This document shows positions 11,241 through 36,665 of a stretch of 64,000 nt of DNA, one piece after another. Every line of letters begins with the position of its first letter. Position 1 is the stretch's first letter. Origin of the DNA: a virus; IMG/VR virus record IMGVR_UViG_3300029957_000008, positions 27,977 through 91,976 of that record. One strand, 5' to 3'. A program made the translations under genes and the position numbers. The notes under the pieces were generated by a model. The model was not told the origin of the DNA, ran no database searches, and saw only the letters and a list, made by a program, of their open reading frames with translations.

Positions 11241-11847
11241 TTGGCTCACTGATTCTGAACGCGCAGCACTAGAAGTCTTCAAGAGGAACTTCCGCAAGGG
11301 CGGTCTAGAGAGCTTCCCCCTCGCCCCGCCCACAGCTATCCAGTTTTTTGCTCTGTATCTCCAAGGTAAGACTCTTACCGAAATTGCCGAACTCAATCCT
11401 CAGTACTCATTAGGCACAATCGTCAATTCTGCGGTCTTAGACCGCTGGGATGCAAAGTATCAGGACTACTTAGAGGAGTTGTATTTCAATGCCAAGAACC
11501 GGGTAGTCCAGACTGCAGCAGAGGGAGTAGGCTTTATCTCTGACCTTCTGGCCGTTACCCACATCAAGGACGGCACCAAACTCAAGAAGTACATTCAGAC
11601 CGAAGATCCTGAGTGCTTGAAGGGTAGCAACTTTGAAATAGCTTCCTTGCGCCAGTACAAAGAGGCCGTGGAAGTGCTTATGAAGCTAACCGGCCAAGAC
11701 AACATCAAGAAGATTCAGGTTTCTGATGTAACTGAGCCAAAACAGCAACTAGAGCCGGAAAAGAAGCCAGAACCTGCGAAGCTGCCTTCTTTGGGGGATC
11801 TGGTAGCTACTCGAAGGAACAAGATCCAGCAGGGTAAGGCGGAGTAA
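11140..11847 (+). CDS. terminase small subunit candidate
   Basis: HTH-like LYLQGKTLTEIAELNP...RW; TAATG-coupled to the large terminase; preceded by CAATCTTTA. Confidence 0.5.
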   Translation: MLENQNPSQQKPLEAEIVSDGSRQEITALDASVSWLTDSERAALEVFKRNFRKGGLESFPLAPPTAIQFFALYLQGKTLTEIAELNPQYSLGTIVNSAVLDRWDAKYQDYLEELYFNAKNRVVQTAAEGVGFISDLLAVTHIKDGTKLKKYIQTEDPECLKGSNFEIASLRQYKEAVEVLMKLTGQDNIKKIQVSDVTEPKQQLEPEKKPEPAKLPSLGDLVATRRNKIQQGKAE

Positions 11848-13889
11848 TGCCAATTACCTTTTCCGCTCAGGAAGAGCATCTACGGCGACTACTCTTTAGT
11901 CCTTGTAAGACCAGAGAGGAATGCCACCAGTGGGTTGAGTTCTTTCTAGACCTAGACCTTCCGGGGTGCATTGTTGACGAAGCCTCCAACTGCACACCCC
12001 TAGACATGGTTTGGGAGTGCTATTCCCACCAGGTCCACGGGCCTGAGAATGAGGACGTTTCCAGGATTCTGTACTACTCCTGTCGAGAAGGAGGCAAGTC
12101 CCTTGATGAATCAGTCATTGAGGTAATGCTCCTATTTCACGCAAGAAACAACATCTTCCACCTTGCGGCTATTAGAGAGCAGTCGGCTACCGTCCAGGGG
12201 TATATCAAAAAGTTCCTCAGTCGGCCACTCCTGAGGCCGTTCGTGGGTGGTGACAGTAGGGCTCTTACCGGCTTATTTTTCTATGTTCCTGTGGATGGGG
12301 TAGGGGTTTACCTGTCAGATGCTGAATGGCGAACTTTACCGCCAGAAGAGCAGGAAAAGTATCTGGCGGTAAACAACAACGTCGAAGTCCTTGTGGCAAC
12401 TGTTCAGTCGTGTAACTCAAAGCACGGCATGTTGGTCTTGGACGAGATCGACGTTATGTTGGGGGACGAGTCTAGGGCCGCTTATAGGCAGTCAAAGTTC
12501 ATTCCCTCAGAGTCCTATGCCGCAAATGGCGAACGCAGACTTCCCTTAACGGTGTTGACATCGACCAGGAAGACCGCGTTCGGTTTGGTTCAGGATGAGA
12601 TCAATGAGTCGGCCAGAACCGGATTGGTAATCCGCCACTGGAACATCCTCGACGTCACCCAGGCATGTCCTACCACCAGACATCAACCTGAAAAAGAGAA
12701 GGTAACGATCTACTCTTCGGATGAACTCCTCGCCACCAAAACGACAGAAGAGTACTTGAAGCTTCCTGTAATTGAGCAGTCAAAGTATGAGAAGCACGAG
12801 AATTGTCACAACGGCTGCCTGAATCGCTGCAAACTCTTCTTCGCCTGCAAAGGTCGGCTTGTTGATAAACAGACCTGCACATCCCCGTTTTTGAAGTCGA
12901 TTACGCACGTTCAGAACCAGTTTCGGAACGCGACAGTTGAAATGTCGACGTCCGAGCTGCTTTGTAAACACCCCTCAACGACGGGTTTGGTCTACCCAAG
13001 GTTCGCCCCTGAGAAGCACGTCATCAGGCCGGCAGAAGCCTATAAGAAGATCATGGGTGAGTATCCGCCCAACCTCAACATGACCAAGGCTGAGCTAGTT
13101 TCCTTCGTCAAAACAAGAGACGTCCCTTGGTATGGTGGCATGGACTTCGGTTACTCCCACAACTTCGCCTATGTTCAAGGTTTCAAGGATGTCTCCAAGC
13201 TCTTCGTCACTCACGCCCTAGCAATGCCCGAACTGGAGACGGACCAGAAGCTAGAAGCCATGGCTCCCTACAAGGGCTACTTCCCCGCCATCTATCCCGA
13301 CCCCGAAGATCCAGGAACCATCCGAATCCTTAAAAATAAGGGTTACCGGATGATCAAGTGGACTAAGGGCAGGGGGTCGGTTGTAGGAGGTATTGCCACA
13401 GTGCAAATGAAGCTCACTCCTCCATTGGGCGCCGAACCTGAACTGTACTTCGTCCATGATATCCTAGACGACCCAGGAATGGACATCTTACTAAAGCACC
13501 TTCAGGAGCACCACTGGAAGCTAGATGCAGGCCACAAGCCCACCGATCTAATCTCTGACGACAACAAGGACTTACCAGACGCACTAAGGTACATGGTTAT
13601 GGGAGTCTTCCCCTACAAGGGTAGGACAACCGTCGTCCAGGGCCATGATGGCCCCCAAAGTAGACCAACAGATGTGGATGGCCAGGTCCAGTACAGCGTA
13701 GACAACTGGATGTCTCAAAAGATAGCCGAGATCACAGGCCAGGAGATGCCCCCAACCCCTCAGTCCAGGCAGATTAAAATCCAGTCCTTGGACGGGAAAA
13801 CATTGAGTTTTGACTATAAAGATACTGAGGAACCAGAGCAGGATGATGACCTTCAGACCAGCTCCGGAATCATCTTCGAACTTGGGTAA
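11847..13889 (+). CDS. terL: terminase large subunit
   Basis: Walker A SCREGGKS, Walker B LVLDEID, nuclease motifs GMDFGYSH and DLPDALRY; Cys-rich insert. Confidence 0.9.
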   Translation: MPITFSAQEEHLRRLLFSPCKTREECHQWVEFFLDLDLPGCIVDEASNCTPLDMVWECYSHQVHGPENEDVSRILYYSCREGGKSLDESVIEVMLLFHARNNIFHLAAIREQSATVQGYIKKFLSRPLLRPFVGGDSRALTGLFFYVPVDGVGVYLSDAEWRTLPPEEQEKYLAVNNNVEVLVATVQSCNSKHGMLVLDEIDVMLGDESRAAYRQSKFIPSESYAANGERRLPLTVLTSTRKTAFGLVQDEINESARTGLVIRHWNILDVTQACPTTRHQPEKEKVTIYSSDELLATKTTEEYLKLPVIEQSKYEKHENCHNGCLNRCKLFFACKGRLVDKQTCTSPFLKSITHVQNQFRNATVEMSTSELLCKHPSTTGLVYPRFAPEKHVIRPAEAYKKIMGEYPPNLNMTKAELVSFVKTRDVPWYGGMDFGYSHNFAYVQGFKDVSKLFVTHALAMPELETDQKLEAMAPYKGYFPAIYPDPEDPGTIRILKNKGYRMIKWTKGRGSVVGGIATVQMKLTPPLGAEPELYFVHDILDDPGMDILLKHLQEHHWKLDAGHKPTDLISDDNKDLPDALRYMVMGVFPYKGRTTVVQGHDGPQSRPTDVDGQVQYSVDNWMSQKIAEITGQEMPPTPQSRQIKIQSLDGKTLSFDYKDTEEPEQDDDLQTSSGIIFELG

Positions 13890-14887: not shown

Positions 14888-16885
14888 ATGATCAAAAAGA
14901 AAGCTAAGAGCGACGGGGTTGTTTGGGGAGAGACGCCAGAAGAGGCGGCACTTCTAAAGTCCTCCGTTAATGTCAGGACCACAAACAGTCTTACCAAGTC
15001 AATCCTGAACGTTCTAGATGGACCTAATCAGGAAGTTGAGCGGTTAGCTTTCGAAGTAGATCCTACGCGGGTCAATTCGTACGCCAACGTCTACAAGCCT
15101 AAGGCGAGACTACTCCCCGATTCAATCCTGAAGCGAATTGCAATTCAGGACTCCCTTGTTTCGAACATTGTAAGGGCCAGGCAAAATCACGTCTCCATCT
15201 TCGGCCATCCACGGCCGGATCGGTTTAGCTGTGGGTTCGTCATTAGACCAGACACAGGCGTACTTGACTCCCTGAAGGAGCAAGAGAAGCAAGAACTGAA
15301 TGGTAGGATTCAGGTTGCAGTAAAACTTCTGAATACCTGTGGTCATACTGAAGAGGCCAAAGACTATTGTCAAGCTAGCTTTTCGGAATACCTGTCGGTT
15401 TCGGCCAGAGACGCAGTCACTGTTGGCCGTATTGCGACAGAAATTGTGTACAAGACGGACTTAAAGACTGATGAGAAGAAGTTCGTCTACTTTGTGGCTA
15501 CTGATGCCGGTACGATCTACCAGGCAGTTCCTGAGGACAACGCTGCGAAACAGAGCATTCGTGAGCAGGCCTATGACCTGATTGTAAAGGTCACTGGCAA
15601 GAAACAAGTAAGAGAACCTAGAGGGATTCCCCAGCGTTACGACTGGGTGCAGGTTATTGAGGGGACACCCAAGCAGGTCTTCACTTCTGAGGAAATGAAG
15701 TGTCGGAACTTCTACCCGACAAACAACTACGAGTTAGATGGATATCCCGTCACGCCAATTGATACGGTGATGTCAGCCATCACTACGCACATCAACATCA
15801 CGACCCACAACAAGATGTACTTCCAGTCTGGCCGCGCAGCCAGAGGTATGCTTGTCATCAAGTCGGATGATACGAATCCTACTGTAATCCATAACATTAA
15901 GCAGCAGTTCGCCGCGAACATCAATGGAAGTCAGGCAGCTTTCCGAATGCCTATTTTCGGTATCTCCACTGATGCTGATATCAATTGGCAGCCGATGGAT
16001 ACGTCCGGCAGCCGGGACATGGAGTTCCAGTACCTGACTGACTTGAACGCCCGTGAAATTCTCACCGCGTTCATGATGTCTCCCGATGAACTTCCCGGCT
16101 GGTCGTTCTTGAGCCGTGGTACGTCTTCGCAGGCACTCTCGGAGTCCAACAAGGAGTTCCAACTAACAGCCGCTCGCGACGTGGGCATACGCCCCTTATT
16201 GAGCGGGTTTGAAGACTTCATCAACAAGGAAATCTTCCCTCTAATTGATCCTTATCTAGCTAAAATTTGTCGTGTTCAGTTCTTAGGACTAGACGCTGAC
16301 ACACCTGAGAAGGAAATTGTAAACATCCAGCAGAACTCTCAAGTCTGGATGACCTACAACAACATCCTTGAGCGAGTTGAGCAGCCTCTTCTAGACAAAC
16401 GTTGGTGTTCAGAGATTCCGCTCAACCCTGTCTACAAGGGCTACCTAGATAGCTACTTAATGGTCGGTGAGATCATGGAGAAGTTCATGGGTATTGAGGG
16501 AGCGGCCAAGGATCCTCGGTTCCAGTACTTCAGGGATCCTCTCTATTTTCAGTTCCTTCACTTTCAGCAACAACAGCAGCAAATGGCCATGCAACAGCAA
16601 CAGATGCAGCAGCAAGCCCAGCAGCCGCAGCAACAGCCCCAAGATCCAAATGTCCAACAACCTGCTGACCAAAGCAATCAGGGGCCTGAGGACCTAGCTA
16701 GGGGGGTGGACCAAGCCTACGAGCTAATGACCAAGTCTGAGGATAACCTCTCACCTGAGAAGCGTCGGATCCTACATACGCAGAATAAAGCAATGAAATT
16801 TATGATGCAGGGCTTTGAGGACGATGTCAAGGACGCCATCAAGGAAGTCCTGGAAGTTACTAAAAACATAAAACCGAGGAAGTAA
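14888..16885 (+). CDS. portal protein
   Basis: GYPVTPID, YFQSGRAARGML, RDMEF and RDVGIRPLLSGFEDFIN resemble Twort/HK97-type portals; poly-Q near the C-terminus. Confidence 0.9.
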   Translation: MIKKKAKSDGVVWGETPEEAALLKSSVNVRTTNSLTKSILNVLDGPNQEVERLAFEVDPTRVNSYANVYKPKARLLPDSILKRIAIQDSLVSNIVRARQNHVSIFGHPRPDRFSCGFVIRPDTGVLDSLKEQEKQELNGRIQVAVKLLNTCGHTEEAKDYCQASFSEYLSVSARDAVTVGRIATEIVYKTDLKTDEKKFVYFVATDAGTIYQAVPEDNAAKQSIREQAYDLIVKVTGKKQVREPRGIPQRYDWVQVIEGTPKQVFTSEEMKCRNFYPTNNYELDGYPVTPIDTVMSAITTHINITTHNKMYFQSGRAARGMLVIKSDDTNPTVIHNIKQQFAANINGSQAAFRMPIFGISTDADINWQPMDTSGSRDMEFQYLTDLNAREILTAFMMSPDELPGWSFLSRGTSSQALSESNKEFQLTAARDVGIRPLLSGFEDFINKEIFPLIDPYLAKICRVQFLGLDADTPEKEIVNIQQNSQVWMTYNNILERVEQPLLDKRWCSEIPLNPVYKGYLDSYLMVGEIMEKFMGIEGAAKDPRFQYFRDPLYFQFLHFQQQQQQMAMQQQQMQQQAQQPQQQPQDPNVQQPADQSNQGPEDLARGVDQAYELMTKSEDNLSPEKRRILHTQNKAMKFMMQGFEDDVKDAIKEVLEVTKNIKPRK

Positions 16886-17668
16886 TTGAGATACTTCATA
16901 CCAAAAAGCGGCGTGAAAGCCATTGATGCGGCCATTGAGGCTTTGTTCAACCGAATGAAGCTTAGGTTCCTTGGAAAGAACTTCGAACCTAAGCAGATTC
17001 GTTTCAGCGTGAAACCCGATAAGGCGGTGGACTACAGGGAAGACCTGGCACTGCCTAGCATCTTCGACAAGGCTGCCAGAAGCGAGGGGATGAAGCCTAA
17101 CGAGCCCCTTAAGCAGTCGGTCACAGAAATCATAGAGCAATACCTAGATGCTCATCAAGAGTCCGCTAAGGCCAAGATTCGCTCTACCGTGCAAACATTT
17201 TTGAGCGAGGCGGAGGCCGGTACGGAAGGTGGGGTCGAGAAGGTTCTTAAAGAAGAACTTTCGAACGTCATGGAGAAAGTAACGTCTGGCGTACAAAACG
17301 TGGTGGATAACGAAATGGGAAGAGCAAAGAACTTAAGCACCCTAGATGCAATTACGAAAATCAACGCATTCTCCAACATTTCCGATCCAACGGTGGTGTT
17401 CATTGGCCCGAACGATCAACACACCTGTAAGGACTGCCAGAGATTGTTCTACCTAGAAGACGGGATCACGCCAAGAGCGTGGAAAGTCTCAGAACTCAAG
17501 ATGGGGCTTGGAAAACACGGTGACACTTCTCCTTGTGCGGGCGGTCAGCATCCTCACTGTCGTCATTCATATGGCACAATGATGCCAGGTTTTGGTTTTA
17601 CATCGGGCGGCAAGATAACCTATATCGAGCCGGGGTTTGATATTTGGAAATTCCAGCATGGTGGTTGA
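16886..17668 (+). CDS. MuF/SPP1 gp7-like head morphogenesis protein
   Basis: TCKDC...HPHCRH motif; directly after the portal. Confidence 0.75.
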   Translation: MRYFIPKSGVKAIDAAIEALFNRMKLRFLGKNFEPKQIRFSVKPDKAVDYREDLALPSIFDKAARSEGMKPNEPLKQSVTEIIEQYLDAHQESAKAKIRSTVQTFLSEAEAGTEGGVEKVLKEELSNVMEKVTSGVQNVVDNEMGRAKNLSTLDAITKINAFSNISDPTVVFIGPNDQHTCKDCQRLFYLEDGITPRAWKVSELKMGLGKHGDTSPCAGGQHPHCRHSYGTMMPGFGFTSGGKITYIEPGFDIWKFQHGG

Positions 17669-18383
17669 CAATTTGAGTGACACGATAGATAAGACAACAG
17701 GGAAAACATGCGGAGGCTGTAACAGGGTTCTTCCTTTAGACTCATTTGGTAAACATTCGGCCGTCAAAAGCGGAAAAAGATCGCGATGTAAAGAATGTCG
17801 CCACGAAGAGGGTGTTAGATATAGAAAACAGAATCCGAATAATGGCCGAAACTACTACAAGAACAACAGAGAGAAACAAAGGGAATACGGTAGGAGATAT
17901 TATCAAGAAAACCGCGACTACCTTAAGAGTAAAACCAAGGCGTATAGACGAGACAATAAGGAAAAGCGAAACGCCAAAGAAAACGAGCGTTTTGCAACGG
18001 ACTTGCAGTACAGGCTGACTAAGAATATCCGAACCCGCCTGCGTAAATGCGTTAAACGTGGTTTTAAGGCTGGATCCTCAAGTGAGATGGGATGTACCGG
18101 CTTGGAATTTAAAGAATACATAGAGTCTCTGTTTTGGCCGAATATGACTTGGGATAATTACGGCAAGGAGTGGGAGCTTGACCACGTAAGTCCTTTATCA
18201 AAATCCGATCTTTGTAGCAGGGACAGCTTCCTTGCAGCAAATCACTTTACGAATGTCCAACCTTTGTGGAAGGACGATAACGAAAACAAGCTAGATCGTT
18301 TGGATTGGAGTCCTACTGAATCGGTCCACGAATTTCCTGAAAGACTGCGATATCTAATTATTCCCCAAGCAGCTAATGGTTGA
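17637..18383 (+). CDS. HNH-type homing endonuclease with an N-terminal Zn finger
   Basis: CGGC...CKEC; MTWDNYGKEWELDHVSPLS...HFTNVQPLWKDDN. Confidence 0.8.
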   Translation: MIFGNSSMVVDNLSDTIDKTTGKTCGGCNRVLPLDSFGKHSAVKSGKRSRCKECRHEEGVRYRKQNPNNGRNYYKNNREKQREYGRRYYQENRDYLKSKTKAYRRDNKEKRNAKENERFATDLQYRLTKNIRTRLRKCVKRGFKAGSSSEMGCTGLEFKEYIESLFWPNMTWDNYGKEWELDHVSPLSKSDLCSRDSFLAANHFTNVQPLWKDDNENKLDRLDWSPTESVHEFPERLRYLIIPQAANG

Positions 18384-21437: not shown

Positions 21438-22010
21438 TTATTTTCTGCAACCAAATTCAGAATCCTGAGTTACTAATGTTTTTAGGTATCGGAATCGTTT
21501 GGTGACAGTGTAGGTGTATCTAGAGATCGTGGGATCGTTAATCCAGTTTCCATACCCCTTGTTGTAAATGGTCAAAGCCTTCAGTAGGTTGCGCTGTTCT
21601 CCTATTAGTTCGGCCAGGTAGGCTATTCCTAGGTAGATGTTGTTCCTAATGTCGTAAAACGGATCCCCCACGATCTTGAACTTCTCCACCAAGTACTTGC
21701 TGGTCCGTTTGGATAGCTGAATCAGTCCCCGACAGCCTTTCTTAGACTTTGCTCTCTTATCGTACCGGCTTTCGACTTCTATAAGGGCTACAACAAATAC
21801 CGGGCTAAGCCCGAACTCCCTACCTACTTCAGTTGCAGCTATTGCCATCTCCTTGGCGTCTGAGGAGTCTAGCTTGGTCTGCAGGACGTAGGAGCGTTTA
21901 GCTATTAGCTCCTGAAGAGGCACCACATCGGCGGATTCCGGTGCTAAGCACCTATTACCGCCGTTCATGCCATTTAGAAACATTAGAAGAGTTAGTATCT
22001 GTAGGTTCAT
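21438..22010 (-). CDS. lytic transglycosylase (SLT domain) with an N-terminal hydrophobic segment
   Basis: VESRYD...AKSKKGCRGLIQL...NIYLGIAYL...YNKG. Confidence 0.9.
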   Translation of the reverse strand: MNLQILTLLMFLNGMNGGNRCLAPESADVVPLQELIAKRSYVLQTKLDSSDAKEMAIAATEVGREFGLSPVFVVALIEVESRYDKRAKSKKGCRGLIQLSKRTSKYLVEKFKIVGDPFYDIRNNIYLGIAYLAELIGEQRNLLKALTIYNKGYGNWINDPTISRYTYTVTKRFRYLKTLVTQDSEFGCRK

Positions 22011-22205: not shown

Positions 22206-24389
22206 ATGCTGTGCCCCAACATTAAAGATTCCAAGGGAATGCTCATCGATGGAGTTTTTTCATCGGAGGCCATCGACTCTTCAGGAGAAGTTGTAAAACT
22301 TGAAGGTATTGATATCTCCTCTATGGAAGAGGGGCACGGGGTTGCCAATTACGAGCACAAGGGAATAGACGCTGGAGGCTTTGGCCGGGAGATCGTAGGA
22401 AGGATCATCTACGTCCACAAGGTTTTTAAGGCTTCGGACTGCGAAGATGACCGCCAAAGGATGTTTTGGAAGAAAGTCAAGGAGCAGCCCTTTCTCTACG
22501 GTATGGTCCGGCTTTACGATGCTGCGGGCCACACCGGAGCAGAGGCCCTAGCGGCCCAAATCCGGGATGCTGTCTACCACGATGATGAAATTACGGTTAG
22601 GTACTCCGTAGAGGGTACAACCCTTGAGCGGGATGGAAACATCATTAAGACCTCCATCGCTAGGAAGGTTGCTCTAATCATTGGCCCCTGCAATAAGACC
22701 TGTCTATCCGGTGTGGTTAAAGACACCAACGCCCCTAAGGGATACCAAAAAGAGGACATCGAGAAGTCTGAATTATTGTCCGATCCTTCAAGCCGAAGCA
22801 TCGGTGACGCCCCAGAGTACCAGTACAACCCAATCGTGTCGGATTTTACCAAGAACCCGCTTATTGATCTGGTCCAGAGCTTAGAGCTACTAAAGAGCAT
22901 GACGGCGGGTGGTGGAGACGCAGCCCCTTCTACTCTTACTGGCGGCCAAGCTCTACAAAGGGAAGAGCTAGGTGGCGTCTACAAGAACCACATCGTTGAC
23001 GCCATCAAGGACTACAAAGACCCTTGGGACCACGGTAAGTTTCGAAAGTTTCTAAAAGCTCGGTTGGACAAAGCTGACCTTCCTGAGGTTTCTGACTCGT
23101 TCTTGGACTACTTCATGGGGATCGCCAAGGACTACCAGATTAAGAAGCATCAGGACATTAACCAGGAGTACATTACTAATACTTCGCTGGTTGGCCAAGT
23201 CCATCAGTTAGAAGGATATCTGGTTGAGCTGAGGAAGTCCATCAGAGACGAGCTAGAGGGGTACCAAGTTAGCCTTCCTGAGGTTTACGCCGTCAAGATG
23301 AAGGTGGGTAATGATTACCTACCCGCTGGTCGGTTCATGGTGGTTCAAAACGCAGTCCACCACCTAGAAGACTACCATGGGATCCTAGCAGCTATGATTC
23401 CCGAAGGGCCTTTGGGTGTAGACGGCCAGACTGGAATAGAAGCCCTCAAGATGGTCCCCGAGTTCTCGGTTACCGAGCATCAGATTCCTGAGCCGGTAGC
23501 CAATACAGTACCTGGTATTGTTGGGGTGGTTTCCAACAAGCTTCAAGCCCCACAAAGGGCCGCTGTTTTTGAATATATTCGGCCCGGTATGGGGCAGTCC
23601 CATATTGTTGAGTTTAGTGAGCATGGCGCAGCCCTGGATGGTGAAAAGCTGACAGATGATGAGCTGAATCTCATTGTCTCCAATGTTGAAAGCGGTTTGG
23701 CTACTCTCAAGTGGAAGCAGAATAGCAACCAGGACTTGAGTAAGTCTGACATGGGCGTGCATGAGGCTATGGCTGGTTTAAGAGCGGCCGTATCGGCCGG
23801 ACATGTGCATCCTGATGTCGAAAGGGCGTTTACCAAGCACGTCTTTGAGGACCACATGGTTCCTGGGGTGGGTAATAAGTTCGCTTGGAATGAATTTCAA
23901 CGACAGAACAAGCCAGGAGTACTTGGGTCTATTGATCTTAACTCTTTTAAGCACATTAACGATACTCGCGGCCATATTGCCGGCGATAGCGCGATCAAGG
24001 CCGTTGGTGGGGCACTGAAGAGTGCTGCTGAGAAGGTTGGGACAGTAAAGCTGTTTAGGACTGGTGGAGACGAGTTTGCCATTCACAGCCCTACTCAAGA
24101 AGATGCTCATAGGTTTATGAGAGAAGCAAGGTCTCACATGGCTCAAATACCGCCAGTTGGCGGGGTACATAAGCCATCGTTCAGTATCGGCTTGGGCCAG
24201 GACTTTGGGACGGCAGACAAGGCTTTGTATCTAGCCAAGAAGCAAAAGGTCGATCCTGTGACGGGTAAGAACGCCTATCACCCTGCCAGAACTCCTCACT
24301 TGGGGCACTCTTTGCTGCCAGGATCGGAAGGGCCGATCAATATGTCTGAAGCACCTACGGCTTCGACTGGGTCAAAGGTAGCGGCGTAG
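22206..24389 (+). CDS. prohead serine protease fused to a C-terminal GGDEF diguanylate cyclase domain
   Basis: Protease: DSSGEVV, NYEH, YSVEG, ALIIGPCN. GGDEF: DLNSFKHINDTRGHIAGD, FRTGGDEF (24063-24077), ADKALYLAK. Confidence 0.9.
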   Translation: MLCPNIKDSKGMLIDGVFSSEAIDSSGEVVKLEGIDISSMEEGHGVANYEHKGIDAGGFGREIVGRIIYVHKVFKASDCEDDRQRMFWKKVKEQPFLYGMVRLYDAAGHTGAEALAAQIRDAVYHDDEITVRYSVEGTTLERDGNIIKTSIARKVALIIGPCNKTCLSGVVKDTNAPKGYQKEDIEKSELLSDPSSRSIGDAPEYQYNPIVSDFTKNPLIDLVQSLELLKSMTAGGGDAAPSTLTGGQALQREELGGVYKNHIVDAIKDYKDPWDHGKFRKFLKARLDKADLPEVSDSFLDYFMGIAKDYQIKKHQDINQEYITNTSLVGQVHQLEGYLVELRKSIRDELEGYQVSLPEVYAVKMKVGNDYLPAGRFMVVQNAVHHLEDYHGILAAMIPEGPLGVDGQTGIEALKMVPEFSVTEHQIPEPVANTVPGIVGVVSNKLQAPQRAAVFEYIRPGMGQSHIVEFSEHGAALDGEKLTDDELNLIVSNVESGLATLKWKQNSNQDLSKSDMGVHEAMAGLRAAVSAGHVHPDVERAFTKHVFEDHMVPGVGNKFAWNEFQRQNKPGVLGSIDLNSFKHINDTRGHIAGDSAIKAVGGALKSAAEKVGTVKLFRTGGDEFAIHSPTQEDAHRFMREARSHMAQIPPVGGVHKPSFSIGLGQDFGTADKALYLAKKQKVDPVTGKNAYHPARTPHLGHSLLPGSEGPINMSEAPTASTGSKVAA

Positions 24390-24765
24390 TCTTTCGGCAG
24401 CTTTTGCAGGTTCGTTCGCGTTGAGTGAACGATAAGAACATTGGCAGGACCTTGTTGCAGGCGTAGCACTCTCTGAGGCCGCTGTCCGCATTGCATTTGC
24501 TGCATAGGCCGTTGCTGTTCAGTTTTCGGTGTTTGAGGCAGCAGGCGCAGACTGTATCTGGCCACTTTTTGACCATTATGTCCTCTTTCCTGCAGGATTT
24601 ACACTTTGAAGTGACGGGTCTAGCTGTGCCCTCCCGGATGAACTCATGGAAGGCCCTCCTGGGAAGGGCTTTCTTGCATCCAGAGCATCTGTAGGTCTCG
24701 TCAGCGGTCACTATTGGTAAGATTAGTGTTTTATACATTTTTTGTAGCTCACTAATGTCAATCAT
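24355..24765 (-). CDS. multi-Zn-finger protein (three CxxC...CxxC units)
   Basis: Six CxxC motifs; antisense insertion within the head cluster. Confidence 0.55.
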   Translation of the reverse strand: MIDISELQKMYKTLILPIVTADETYRCSGCKKALPRRAFHEFIREGTARPVTSKCKSCRKEDIMVKKWPDTVCACCLKHRKLNSNGLCSKCNADSGLRECYACNKVLPMFLSFTQRERTCKSCRKTTPLPLTQSKP

Positions 24766-26259: not shown

Positions 26260-27675
26260 ATGAATCCATTGTCGCAAATTCAAGACCTCGTAAAGGCACT
26301 AGAGGCCGGCAACTATGATGCCGCCCCCAGCACACTAGAGCAAGGCTCTGCCCTGCAGATTGAAGACCTCAATCCTGTCATGGTCATGGTCACAGCAGAA
26401 GAAAAACACATTAAGCTCCAGAAGCTGATTCCTGTTGAGTCGTCTAAGTCGACGACTTTTCAGTTCAACCGTCAGCTCTCGGTTGGTATCATGGGTGGCA
26501 GCGCTCAGATGGAAGGTAACGTTGGTCAAGAGGAAACTTCTGACTACGTACGTATCACCATCCCAATGACGTACTACTCGCACATTCGTCGGGTGACTGT
26601 TGCTTCGACCTTGGTTGCCAGCTCTGATGGTAAGAAGTCAGATGAACGGGCGGCTCAGGATGCGGCTAAGAAAGTCTCCTTTGACGTTGAGTTCGACCTC
26701 TTCCGTGGTCTTGAGTGTTTCAGCAACGCCGGTACTTTCGACGGCAACCCGCTGACCACCTCGAACCTTCTCCCCAACATGCATGGCCTTTCGCTCCAGG
26801 TTCGTCAGTCGGACTTCCAGGTGAACAGCCGTGATGCAATGTTCGCCGAGTTCGGTTCGGATCAGACGGTTGTTCTTTCAGCCGGTGGTTCGACTCTAAC
26901 CCAGGGTATCATTGAAGACGGCGCTCTCCGTAGCTCTTTGGGCTTCGGCGAAGCGGACAAGCTCATTGTGGATCCCGTGGTTCTCGCTAACTACAACAAG
27001 ATCACGTTCGGCAAAGAGCGTATCATCCTCGCGGGTAGCCCGCAAGATGCGACTGCCGGTGACCTTCGTCGTCAGTGGGTCTCGGGCGGCACTGTGAACA
27101 TTGAAGCTTCGCAGTTCCTCCGTGGCAAGTTCAAGCCCGCTCCTGTGCGTGCGAACAGCCCCGTGGCTCCTGCTAGCATCACTGTGACCCCGGCTTCGGC
27201 CACCAACCCGACCGGCCTCGCCGCTGGTGTTTATTACTACTTCGCTACCGCTGGTAACGAAGTTGGTGAGTCGGTTGCTTGTACGGCAGTGTCTTCGGGC
27301 AGCGTGACGAAGGACTACAAGGTTACGGTTGTGGTTACCCAGCCCGCGTCTGGCGTCTACCGCTTCTACAACATCTACCGTTCGCCTGTCGGCGGTACGG
27401 CAGCTCAGGCCAAGTTCATTGGTCGCGTTGTTCCGACCCAGGGCTCGTCCACGACTAACTTCGTTGACCTCAACGGCATGAATCCTGCAGCGGTTACTGG
27501 TTACTTCCTTCAGAAGGACGGAGCCAGCATTCGTGAACTGGCTTCTTACAGCCGCCTCAAGCTGGCCGTCTCGGACCTCAGCATGCCGGAAGCTCACTTC
27601 CGCTTCCTGGGCCTAGCGGTTGAGACTCCTCGCAAGTTCGTCCTCATCGACAACTTGAATGGTACCATCAGCTAA
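26260..27675 (+). CDS. major capsid protein (Twort/SPO1-like, with an FN3-like insertion)
   Basis: N-terminal LVKALEAG...GSALQIEDL; YYYFATAGNEVGES and YNIYRS insert; strong RBS; followed by a terminator. Confidence 0.9.
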   Translation: MNPLSQIQDLVKALEAGNYDAAPSTLEQGSALQIEDLNPVMVMVTAEEKHIKLQKLIPVESSKSTTFQFNRQLSVGIMGGSAQMEGNVGQEETSDYVRITIPMTYYSHIRRVTVASTLVASSDGKKSDERAAQDAAKKVSFDVEFDLFRGLECFSNAGTFDGNPLTTSNLLPNMHGLSLQVRQSDFQVNSRDAMFAEFGSDQTVVLSAGGSTLTQGIIEDGALRSSLGFGEADKLIVDPVVLANYNKITFGKERIILAGSPQDATAGDLRRQWVSGGTVNIEASQFLRGKFKPAPVRANSPVAPASITVTPASATNPTGLAAGVYYYFATAGNEVGESVACTAVSSGSVTKDYKVTVVVTQPASGVYRFYNIYRSPVGGTAAQAKFIGRVVPTQGSSTTNFVDLNGMNPAAVTGYFLQKDGASIRELASYSRLKLAVSDLSMPEAHFRFLGLAVETPRKFVLIDNLNGTIS

Positions 27676-27793: not shown

Positions 27794-28036
27794 ATGCAAA
27801 CATTGGGAAAGACAGAAAAAGAGAGGGATTTTCTTGCTGGATATCAGGCTGGTGGCATTAATTACCTGAAGGTGGTCGTTGGGATTTTAGAATCCGCCGC
27901 CTCCGAAGTATACGAAGAGGCCTACCCCAAAGAAGAAGACAGGCAAACATACGGTGTGTTGTGTGGGCTGATTAATGATGTGAAAAAAGAAATAAACTAT
28001 ATTATTGCCGAAAGGATTGTAAGTAGTTCTAAATAG
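27794..28036 (+). CDS. hypothetical protein
   Basis: MQTLGK start downstream of a TTGACA element at about 27743. Confidence 0.55.
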   Translation: MQTLGKTEKERDFLAGYQAGGINYLKVVVGILESAASEVYEEAYPKEEDRQTYGVLCGLINDVKKEINYIIAERIVSSSK

Positions 28037-28084: not shown

Positions 28085-28648
28085 ATGATTCGCGTTCTAA
28101 TTTGTTCAGCTTACGGCAACCAGCCTTCAAATCTGGTTAAGGCCCTTAAATATTCACGATACGCCTTATATAAGGGTTATGCCACCTTTGCTCCACACAT
28201 CGAGTACTCTTCTTGTCTTTCCGATTCCGATGAGGACGAACGGGAGATGGGTATTAATGCCGGACTGGCATTTTTATTAGTGTGTGGGGAGATGTGGGTC
28301 TTTGTGGTTGATGGCGTTCTCTCAACTGGCATGAAGAAAGAGATCAAAACAGCGATTAAGAACAACGTCCTAATCCGTTGGTTTGATGCCTCGAACGACG
28401 AGGATATTAAAGAGCTAATGCACATTCCTTCAGACAGAGTACCCCTCAAGAGAGACTTCGTTACCGACCTAGGAAAGGCTACGGTCAGCAAGTTTTCCGA
28501 GATCGAAGCCTTGCTTAAGAGTGGGGCTAAGTATGGAGACTTGGTAGACAGCATTGACGATCTCCTTGGAACCGCCATGCCAGACAGGGATCTTGAGGCC
28601 GAGCAAATCTACGAAAACACAGTTAAGGATCGAGATGAAGAAATATAA
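28085..28648 (+). CDS. nucleoside deoxyribosyltransferase-like Rossmann protein (DUF4406/DUF7768-like)
   Basis: VLICSAY...FAPH...EREMGI...CGEMWVF...STGMKKEI pattern. Confidence 0.65.
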   Translation: MIRVLICSAYGNQPSNLVKALKYSRYALYKGYATFAPHIEYSSCLSDSDEDEREMGINAGLAFLLVCGEMWVFVVDGVLSTGMKKEIKTAIKNNVLIRWFDASNDEDIKELMHIPSDRVPLKRDFVTDLGKATVSKFSEIEALLKSGAKYGDLVDSIDDLLGTAMPDRDLEAEQIYENTVKDRDEEI

Positions 28649-34019: not shown

Positions 34020-34205
34020 ATGACTATTAAGGTCTATCACGCATCGAATAACTCAACCAAAAGCTACTCCGGGAGCCCTGAACAGGTTCTTGAGCAGTTG
34101 ATGGCTACCTATACGTTCCTCAAGCGCTATCCAACCCATTCCTTGGCTTGCGCGTTGAAGAACCTAGGTCGGCAGCAGAATTACTTCGTTGAGATCGAGG
34201 AATAG
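34020..34205 (+). CDS. small protein paralogous to the N-terminal domain of the downstream kinase
   Basis: KVYH...KSYSGSPEQV...LKNLGRQQN versus TVHN...QVYEGTEQDV...VKDLDRSQN. Confidence 0.65.
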   Translation: MTIKVYHASNNSTKSYSGSPEQVLEQLMATYTFLKRYPTHSLACALKNLGRQQNYFVEIEE

Positions 34206-35527
34206 TGCAAGTCACAGTCCACAACCACTTCAACGACCAGAAGCAGGTCTACGAAGGCACCGAACAGGATGTTCGATTTGAAATCTTTAATGATTTCCCG
34301 TATTTACTATCTAAATACGGTTCGGACGCCAATGTAGATCTTCTAGTTAAGGACCTTGATCGTTCCCAGAACCTTTCTGCCGTGATTTCTTCAATCACCC
34401 TAGCAAAAACCGAGGTAGAGCTACCTCAAACTCCTGAAGCTCAGTTCTTCCCCAAGGACCAGTATCTAGAACTGGTAAGGGAAGCCGCAGAGTTCCTGTC
34501 TGGCATTCCATGTGACAAAGAAATGCTACGCAGGACTCTCCAGGAGAACGATGGCGACGAGAAGGTTGCTTGTCTGGTATCTGTAGGTCTGGAGCCCTCT
34601 GAAGCCAACCTAGCGGCCCTAAGGGCCGTAATGAACGTTAGGTTAGCCAAGTCTGAAGAAGAGCCAATTGTCTTTAGTAAAGTTGAGGCTTTTAGTGATT
34701 CTGGCACAGATTTTGCCGAGATGATTAAAAGGGCCGTTACGGCCCAAACTATTAAGGAAATTCAATTCAAGGCCGGCAAGCATTCCAAGGGAACACTCCT
34801 AGCCAAGGACCCAGAGACCTTCACGCAGTTACTATTAAAGCCAGGAGCTGGCAAGCAAAATCCTGCACTTGGAGAAAGCCAAGTTCAAGCGTCCCAGAGC
34901 GTCCGGGAAGCGGCGTTTTACGCCGTAGCGGACGCATGGGGACTGGCCAAAGACCTGCCAGAGTGCAAGCTGCTGTATATTGACGATCAAGAGTATGCGG
35001 CTATGCAGTTTCTACCCCAGAAGTGGGTTAACGGCAACGATCTAAGGCGACAGGATCCCAATGCAGCCAGAAGATACCTGAGCCCCTACTTGATTCAGGG
35101 AGATGTCCATCGTTGGGCTGTATTAGACTATATTTTGGCCAATCCGGACAGGAACGCTGGAAATATCATGTTCCGGGATGGCCATATCAAGCTGATTGAC
35201 CATGGGTCGGCTTTGGCCGGGATCGACTTCAGTCCAGCTATTGACAACCACGCCTTTGTTCCTTACTACCTAAGAGTTTTTGCTTCTGGCGGTTTTGGCA
35301 AGATGGAGCCAGAGCAACGTCTGAAGGCGCTACCTCGACTGAATTCTGAGGGCGAAAAGAAGCTGGCCGAGTGGATTGGTAGGCTCAACAAGGAAGTCGT
35401 ACAAAAGATTCTAATTCCCTACGGGATCGATCCCACTCCTGAATTGGCTAGGTTGGAACTGTTGAAATTTGCGTGCAGTGTCCAGTCGGCCGATTTGGCT
35501 GTGTTAAGTGTGTGGACGATAGGATAG
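34205..35527 (+). CDS. PI3/PI4K-HipA-like kinase with N-terminal accessory domains
   Basis: GKHSKG, LLKPG, REAAFY, DYILANPDRNAGNIM and LIDHGSAL. Confidence 0.85.
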   Translation: MQVTVHNHFNDQKQVYEGTEQDVRFEIFNDFPYLLSKYGSDANVDLLVKDLDRSQNLSAVISSITLAKTEVELPQTPEAQFFPKDQYLELVREAAEFLSGIPCDKEMLRRTLQENDGDEKVACLVSVGLEPSEANLAALRAVMNVRLAKSEEEPIVFSKVEAFSDSGTDFAEMIKRAVTAQTIKEIQFKAGKHSKGTLLAKDPETFTQLLLKPGAGKQNPALGESQVQASQSVREAAFYAVADAWGLAKDLPECKLLYIDDQEYAAMQFLPQKWVNGNDLRRQDPNAARRYLSPYLIQGDVHRWAVLDYILANPDRNAGNIMFRDGHIKLIDHGSALAGIDFSPAIDNHAFVPYYLRVFASGGFGKMEPEQRLKALPRLNSEGEKKLAEWIGRLNKEVVQKILIPYGIDPTPELARLELLKFACSVQSADLAVLSVWTIG

Positions 35528-36590: not shown

Positions 36591-36665
36591 TGGTTCTCCG
36601 GGTGTGGATCGAACACACTTGAGCCGCTTATAAAGCGGCCATTTTAACCATTAAATTACCGGAGA
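36591..36665 (-). tRNA. tRNA-Ile(UAU)
   Basis: Acceptor TCTCCGG/CCGGAGA, anticodon arm GCCGC-TTTATAA-GCGGC, T arm GTGTG-TTCGATC-CACAC, encoded ACCA. Confidence 0.9.

Follow-up and report, generated by a model that had tools for sequence, protein, structure and literature searches.

A prohead protease joined to an apparently active GGDEF domain, a candidate prohead-loaded cargo polyprotein of an uncultured Mx1-like phage

Here we describe P0001, a 727-residue protein of an uncultured phage in which a capsid-maturation protease and an apparently active GGDEF diguanylate cyclase form the two ends of a single polypeptide. Its gene lies in a 64-kb window (64,000 nucleotides, positions 27,977 to 91,976) of the IMG/VR virus record IMGVR_UViG_3300029957_000008, a linear contig of 91,976 bp that CheckV rates as ~56% complete, implying a genome of ~165 kb. 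Coordinates are given as positions in this window and, unless another protein is named, residue numbers are those of P0001; the boundaries of its parts are listed in Table 1. Based on sequence comparisons, structural models and analogy with better-known phages, we propose that P0001 is a cargo polyprotein that is loaded into the prohead, and whose cyclase is released by the protease, delivered to the next host and used there to make cyclic di-GMP (c-di-GMP). We are close to certain that the fusion of protease and GGDEF domain is real, and consider it likely that P0001 is incorporated into the prohead with processing; the chain as a whole is a tentative reading that we judge possible, falling just short of probable.

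By its modelled fold, the N-terminal domain of P0001 is a serine protease of the gp21/assemblin type. When modelled alone with 71 homologues, this domain reached a predicted local distance difference test score (pLDDT) of 93.4, and its best neighbours among 48,161 chains were T4 gp21 (5jbl; Z 9.9, root-mean-square deviation (rmsd) 2.9, 126 residues) and the varicella-zoster virus protease (1vzv; Z 8.9), with the proteases of human cytomegalovirus and Kaposi's sarcoma-associated herpesvirus next and 8j3s at Z 6.6; unrelated folds reached Z 5.0 at best. A Foldseek search with the same model likewise returned, in its best rows, nearly only herpesvirus proteases or gp21, each above E 1e-3. The candidate catalytic residues His51 (22356-22358) and Ser134 (22605-22607) are invariant in the 71 sequences, and the NYEH and YSVEG motifs of P0001 resemble LNH85 and VS140SRG of gp21, as sequence motifs rather than by residue-level superposition. 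At the level of sequence, P0001 has no match to the Pfam protease families, and a weak match to phrog_1028 (head maturation protease; E 3.9e-4) covers residues 8-52 only. Since the protease profile and T4 gp21 could not be matched by global hhalign, and local hhalign paired just 23 columns (residues 97-120 with gp21 110-132, at a weak E of 0.039), homology to gp21 rests on structure; and because sequence-level support is weak, membership of the family rests on the fold, the invariant residues and the position of the gene. In the head module the order of genes is large terminase, portal, P0001, a 159-aa open reading frame (ORF), a 310-aa ORF and the major capsid protein (MCP), which places P0001 between the portal and the scaffold/major capsid genes, where a capsid-maturation protease is expected, and the same head-module order is found in Myxococcus phage Mx1 (169.6 kb), the only cultured relative. 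On these grounds the label of prohead protease, which an initial annotation had read from the letters, can be kept.

The same annotation had seen in the C-terminal part of P0001 a GGDEF domain with its catalytic hallmarks, and both profile and structure comparisons bear this out. Pfam GGDEF (PF00990) matched residues 560-679 (57.9 bits, cut-off 23.8; E 1.3e-15; 59.5 bits in a six-frame search), phmmer with P0001 matched 43 solved diguanylate cyclases, and the AlphaFold 2 model has a pLDDT >90 across residues 550-710. Compared with SiaD, SadC, DgcB, WspR and PleD, the model gave Z 16.8-18.4 at an rmsd of 2.0-3.0, SiaD being the best match (Z 18.4, rmsd 2.4, 156 residues); some 30 more cyclases scored Z >14, and Foldseek gave E 4e-8 for the domain. 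The strings quoted as hallmarks are present in the translation, with IDLNSFKHINDTRGHIAGD at residues 576-594, GTVKLFRTGGDEF at 612-624 and ADKALYLAKK at 670-679, and all key residues for metal, guanine and phosphate binding are in place (D577, N585, D594, R618, GGDEF 620-624 and K678), the signature with its preceding arginine reading R618-T-G620-G-D-E-F624. D577, N585, D594 and K678, which phmmer aligns with WspR and PA0575 and which we take to correspond to D327, N335, D344 and K442 of PleD, are conserved in at least 90% of 35 homologues; D594 is the guanine-binding aspartate that had been noted as retained. Equally, the claim that no RxxD inhibitory site (I-site) precedes the signature holds for P0001, where KVGT (residues 610-613) stands opposite RSSD of WspR, and for 35 of 35 full-length homologues, none of which has RxxD at this place. 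Ahead of the domain, the helices at residues 518-547 align with the dimerising stalk or coiled-coil helix of SiaD, DgcB and WspR. Thus P0001 shares its fold, catalytic residues and preceding stalk helix with bacterial diguanylate cyclases (PleD, WspR, SiaD, DgcB; PF00990), but differs from them in lacking a sensory or receiver domain and the I-site, in reading DLN instead of the usual DxD after the metal-binding aspartate, and in having extra C-terminal strands and a conserved HSL-PG-EG tail. Taken together, the conserved residues and the model suggest that the domain is apparently a working c-di-GMP synthase.

Between the two enzymes lie a copy of the capsid arm, a helical spacer and a beta-rich domain that we call MID. 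In the AlphaFold 2 model, pLDDT falls below 50 over residues 181-217 and 219-252 in the first linker and 506-515 in the second; helices occupy residues 252-350, and the beta-rich part spans 359-503. Residues 222-258 are 54% identical over 37 residues to residues 4-40 of the MCP (pairwise E 1e-8), whose N-terminus, MNPLSQIQDLVK↓ALEAGNYDAAPSTL, has the same motif and arm (the arrow marks a predicted cut). Where related loci include an MCP gene, a hidden Markov model (HMM) of this block nearly always matches the N-terminus of the MCP. The protease protein therefore holds an internal copy of the capsid N-terminal arm, including the lysine that precedes it. The helical spacer that follows the arm copy is likely a scaffold-like propeptide. 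The MID domain always precedes the cyclase and forms a gene of its own, of ~150 aa, in Mx1 and others; searches of Pfam, PHROGs, ESM Atlas and the PDB by profile (best E 0.14) found no relatives of it outside this phage group, and in a structural search with the whole model of P0001 (VIA) the matches were filled by GGDEF.

To place P0001 among its relatives, we turned to a protein search and to IMG/VR loci. The protein search yielded 35 full-length homologues with the same architecture (38-74% identity) and ~25 longer forms (~1,200 aa) with an extra insert of ~500 aa, which is encoded neither in the window nor in the 92-kb record. In many more proteins the same protease domain bears a PI3/PI4-kinase-like domain or nothing recognisable, so that other C-terminal cargo domains, which the initial annotation had envisaged on related phage proteases, do occur. 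We then classified 80 IMG/VR loci by domain HMMs, of which 60 could be scored. Seventeen of the 60 encode the all-in-one protease-MID-GGDEF fusion, 21 a protease with MID-GGDEF as a separate gene after it, and nine a separate GGDEF gene with the MID mostly separate too, as in Mx1. Wherever the cyclase gene is separate, it lies between the protease and capsid genes. On a tree of the protease domain at least six changes are needed to explain the fused state, and there are sister pairs with good support whose members do not share the same state, which shows that fusion and fission have taken place repeatedly. Mx1 itself (OR576727.2) encodes the parts that form one 727-aa chain here as adjacent genes, namely WNM70322.1 ("putative prohead protease", 1239 aa), WNM70323.1 (hypothetical, 150 aa) and WNM70324.1 ("nucleotide cyclase", 243 aa), with identities to P0001 of 37% for the protease, 30% for the MID and 38% for the cyclase, and in the same order as here: terminase, portal, protease, MID, cyclase, two small genes, capsid. 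Its protease has ~900 additional residues, including a weak PI3/PI4-kinase-like match, an insert that P0001 lacks. In the announcement of the Mx1 genome these genes have automatic names only, and no function is given for them (PMC10720576).

The lysine before the capsid arm is one instance of a recurring motif, which we searched for as [LIVM]-x-K-[SATGN]-[ED] (short form LxK↓[SA][ED], with the predicted cut after Lys). Across the 35 aligned homologues it occupies the same six positions (K187, K230, K289, K314, K344 and K513), each in a disordered linker or the helical spacer; of 189 occurrences, just 14 are within the protease, MID and GGDEF domains. The full motif is found at K187 in 26, at K230 in 30 and at K513 in 24 of these 35 proteins; the lysine itself is invariant at K230 and at least 90% conserved at K187 and K513, even though the linkers around these sites are variable in both length and sequence. 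The putative scaffold has five sites where 0.34 are expected, a number that none of 20,000 shuffles reached, against a mean of 0.08 sites per 100 aa in other large proteins, and the MCP has one at K12, before the arm. In Mx1 the scaffold contains four sites at matching places, and the motif is also present in the portal, at the capsid N-terminus and in the leader of the cyclase. Indeed, the stand-alone cyclases begin with a leader of 12-25 residues ending in LxK↓xD in six of nine loci as well as in Mx1, 17 of 21 MID-GGDEF proteins keep the linker motif, and the cut predicted at K513 falls where the genes are separated in split relatives. This pattern of sequence conservation suggests that the LxK↓[SA][ED] sites are likely cut by the protease. 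By analogy with the capsid targeting sequence of T4 and the propeptides of SPN3US, a linker motif that survives fission as a leader has the look of a targeting peptide that the protease removes.

The initial annotation had inferred that the cyclase would enter every head and could act on the host, and the comparative data raise the likelihood of prohead loading and cleavage. Based on these observations, the following course can be proposed. P0001 would be built into the core of the prohead through its protease domain, its mimic of the capsid arm, or both. The protease would cut after the lysine in Leu-x-Lys↓Ser/Ala-Glu/Asp, and at the same sites would process the MCP (after K12) and shred the scaffold. 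In P0001 it would cut in the linkers, at K187, K230, K289, K344 and K513, whereupon the spacer would be degraded and the protease, the MID (~19 kDa) and the GGDEF piece (residues 514-727, ~23 kDa) would be set free. Lacking an internal site and being, as we propose, too large to exit the shell, the GGDEF piece would stay in the head and be ejected with the DNA. In the new host it would dimerise through its stalk helices and turn GTP into c-di-GMP, presumably without product inhibition since it has no RxxD site, and the c-di-GMP-controlled motility, pili and exopolysaccharide of the host would begin to change in the first minutes of infection.

Several observations weigh against this delivery model. 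Of the 46 related cyclase domains that we aligned, 26 have all the key residues, another 10 depart from them solely in an asparagine at the guanine-binding aspartate (D594N), and ~10 have lost the GG[DE]EF signature (GGDR, GGDC, GGDN, SGDK, KGND and others). The closest full-length homologue, P0002 (74% identity), belongs with the last of these and reads GGDK. Given these losses, the conserved role of the domain is not catalysis alone: catalysis, as far as the residues tell, is usually but not always kept, and in the head the GGDEF domain probably serves a non-catalytic purpose as well. Moreover, 13 of the 60 scorable loci have no cyclase beside the protease, and neither PilZ nor EAL domains (c-di-GMP receptor and phosphodiesterase, respectively) are encoded in the 92-kb record, which is 56% complete. 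GGDEF domains require dimerisation, which for the released fragment is inferred only. Finally, a cargo borne on the protease could be degraded along with it, because T4 gp21 is itself destroyed after maturation.

What else, then, could a cyclase in this position do? It may act in the phage-producing cell rather than in the next host, as the fusion protein or as a free pool of it that has yet to be assembled, raising c-di-GMP late in infection, where it could stop motility, alter surface receptors or exopolysaccharide, or exclude superinfecting phage; the fusion would then simply secure late, stoichiometric expression. We regard this as unlikely, while noting that an intact active site and a gene in the late structural operon are as expected under it, and that the cyclase is a separate gene in most relatives, so that linkage to the protease is not required. 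Acting in the producing cell, however, would leave unexplained why the leader of a stand-alone cyclase should end in a capsid-maturation motif, why that motif flanks the folded domains and is almost absent inside them, and why the gene always stays within the protease-scaffold-capsid block.

We consider it about equally unlikely that GGDEF and MID serve the prohead core chiefly in a structural or regulatory capacity, with synthesis of a cyclic dinucleotide incidental or absent. They could then be components of the core or scaffold, or a nucleotide-dependent dimerisation module that times an assemblin-type protease, and it is general knowledge that herpesvirus proteases are activated by dimerisation. 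Such a role would account for the ~10 of 46 domains that are degenerate yet conserved, full-length and in place, the closest relative among them, and for the invariance of the non-catalytic residues N579, H655, G662 and G664 and of the HSL tail in the homologue alignment. That 15 of 16 fused forms, and 36 of 46 domains overall if D594N is allowed, keep the metal, substrate and GG[DE]EF residues would be unexpected without selection for catalysis, though, and the related phages that have no cyclase beside the protease assemble their heads without the module.

A role against cyclic-nucleotide immunity (cyclic-oligonucleotide-based anti-phage signalling systems (CBASS), type III CRISPR or Panoptes-like systems), through another product or the consumption of nucleotides, seems to us improbable. 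The fold is common to the palm domains of Cas10 and mCpol (Z 11.7 for mCpol), and the D594N change, which hits the base-specifying position, is carried by a subclade of ten loci with separate MID-GGDEF genes (L026, L038, L039, L041, L043, L044, L045, L061, L070 and L077) that read GxxxGN with GGDEF otherwise intact and in which, to judge from this residue, nucleotide specificity may have changed; in addition, Myxococcus is reported to use CBASS and type III-B CRISPR against phage (PMC11506125). In P0001, by contrast, the guanine-binding residues N585 and D594 are both canonical, and true diguanylate cyclases are its closest structures (Z 17-18, against 11-13 for other cyclases). The record is a single metagenomic contig. 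As for the possibility that the fusion is an assembly chimera, raised at the outset, or a gene-calling artefact, it can be set aside as having next to no likelihood, given an uninterrupted ORF and the recurrence of the same fusion on dozens of independent contigs, both among the full-length homologues from independent samples and in 16 fused ORFs of the IMG/VR loci.

The protease of T4, whose fold P0001 shares, cleaves after glutamate. The motif predicted here ends in lysine (LxK↓) instead of the glutamate of T4 and SPN3US, the motif of the latter being AxE↓ (PMC10052503). In other respects the scheme has precedents: in T4 (gp21, with the head-internal proteins IPI-III and Alt) and SPN3US/phiKZ (gp245/gp175, with ejection proteins) a short motif marks capsid protein, scaffold and cargo for cleavage, and in T4 and SPN3US propeptides target cargo to the prohead, from which the enzymes are ejected with the DNA (PMC9026906, PMC10052503). 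Unlike in those phages, the predicted cargo here is covalently joined to the protease and is a second-messenger synthase. P0001 also resembles the phage "polyvalent proteins", which Iyer, Burroughs, Anand, de Souza and Aravind (2017) predicted to be packaged and delivered and in which GGDEF and assemblin-like peptidase domains are rare components (PMC5512222), in that unrelated enzymatic domains, here a protease and a GGDEF domain of the head module, are combined in one late polypeptide; the capsid-arm copy, the MID and the Mx1-like family are not described in that paper. GGDEF proteins are found in other phages too: Yuavirus phages of Pseudomonas and the Bordetella phages FP1, CN1 and MW2 encode small ones with ~30-33% identity to P0001. 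At the one locus that we inspected, in PaSz-4, a GGDEF protein of ~156 aa lies outside the head module, among early/DNA-metabolism genes and beside an exonuclease and an antirestriction gene, and has no protease, MID or leader motif. The concept of packaged multi-enzyme phage proteins is already known (PMC5512222; protease-dependent loading in T4 and phiKZ-like phages). A literature search found no paper linking GGDEF to a prohead protease, and what is new with respect to the literature searched is an N-terminal maturation protease that bears the cargo itself, the capsid-arm copy, the lysine-type cleavage code, and MID-GGDEF as a fixed part of the head cluster in a widespread Mx1-like group.

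Table 1 Positions of P0001, its parts and other head-module and cargo-like genes in the 64-kb window
Feature	Coordinates	Strand	Remarks
Large terminase	11847-13889		head module
Portal protein	14888..16885	+	MTKSE motif near C-terminus
P0001, 727-aa ORF	22206..24389	+	protease, capsid-arm copy, helical spacer, MID, GGDEF
Capsid-maturation protease domain, aa 1-175	22206..22730	+	modelled gp21/assemblin fold
Disordered linker 1, aa 176-252	22731..22961	+	putative cut sites after K187 (22764-22766) and K230 (22893-22895)
Copy of MCP N-terminal arm, aa 222-258	22869..22979	+	LLK↓SMTAGGGDAAPSTLTGGQALQREEL; similar to MCP
Helical spacer, aa 253-352	22962..23261	+	further conserved motif sites K289, K314, K344
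MID domain, aa 353-503	23262..23714	+	beta-rich; conserved xHLEDYH motif
Disordered linker 2, aa 504-517	23715..23756	+	putative cut site DLSK513↓SD, K513 at 23742-23744
GGDEF domain with N-terminal stalk helices, aa 518-715	23757..24350	+	signature 24063-24077; no RxxD
Putative scaffolding protein, 310 aa	25311..26243	+	Ala/Pro/Glu-rich; directly upstream of MCP
Major capsid protein (MCP)	26260..27675	+	phrog_752 E 5e-39
Nudix and three PI3/PI4-kinase-like domains, 1259 aa	30200..33979	+	LKKSE and LSKSE (aa 135, 151) after Nudix

The P0001 gene has an ATG start and runs in one reading frame without interruption. Scans for promoters and terminators around it gave no excess over the shuffled expectation, and a nested start at M515 has no obvious ribosome-binding site. 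Downstream, a gap of 414 bp is occupied by a 136-aa ORF on the minus strand (24355-24765) that shares the last 35 nt of P0001 and has at least six CxxC pairs, giving it a zinc-ribbon-like look, with no match in Pfam; Mx1 has an unannotated gap of equal size and place. Upstream and divergent from the protease gene lies a gene for an SLT lytic transglycosylase (21438-22010, minus strand; Pfam E 1.6e-17). Right after the single TAA that ends the portal ORF, and in the same frame, there is a 260-aa ORF (16886-17668) whose match is to the C-terminal portion of a family of longer portals (positions 543-703 of 717 of phrog_2662). The Mx1 portal and its following gene have the same two-gene layout with differing frames, and the ORF is probably conserved as a gene of its own and not read through from the portal. 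The portal region is followed by an endonuclease VII-like gene (17637-18383, plus strand; phrog_1035 E 1.8e-19) and the capsid gene by a DUF7768/nucleoside 2-deoxyribosyltransferase-like gene (28085-28648, plus strand). The sole Rfam match is a tRNA gene (36594-36665, minus strand; 59.9 bits). A scan of GTDB genomes found the family at two loci, one of them in a Saccharibacteria bin and probably mis-binned, and therefore gave no host clue.

Beyond the capsid gene, the window also encodes the 1259-aa Nudix protein listed in Table 1 and a 440-aa protein (34205-35527) with one more PI3/PI4-kinase-like stretch. In both, LxK↓SE stands just after the N-terminal part, in the 440-aa protein at residues 66 and 147; Mx1 and many other relatives instead have the kinase-like domain fused to the protease. 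These Nudix and kinase-like proteins may be further cargo of the head.

c-di-GMP governs motility, pili, matrix and development in bacteria, and a few enzymes are known to be injected with phage DNA, T4 Alt and the N4 RNA polymerase being examples; to our knowledge, no packaged second-messenger synthase has been demonstrated so far. If the delivery proposed here is true, P0001 would be the first such synthase known as virion cargo, and the virus would rewrite a global bacterial signal from the first seconds of infection. More speculatively, and in our judgement less likely than not, Mx1-like phages at large may deliver a feedback-insensitive cyclase from the capsid, forcing c-di-GMP up at DNA entry and before phage expression, with the arm mimic and LxK↓ sites serving as a general, swappable rack on which kinases, Nudix enzymes and other effectors could be carried. 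The capsid-arm copy and the LxK↓ sites would then amount to a legible address label by which foreign proteins could be loaded into a large capsid, and this label recurs on the kinases and Nudix enzymes. Since both Mx1 and Myxococcus xanthus can be cultivated, the hypothesis is directly testable, and it would bear on the myxobacteria, the host group of Mx1, whose social behaviour is built on c-di-GMP.

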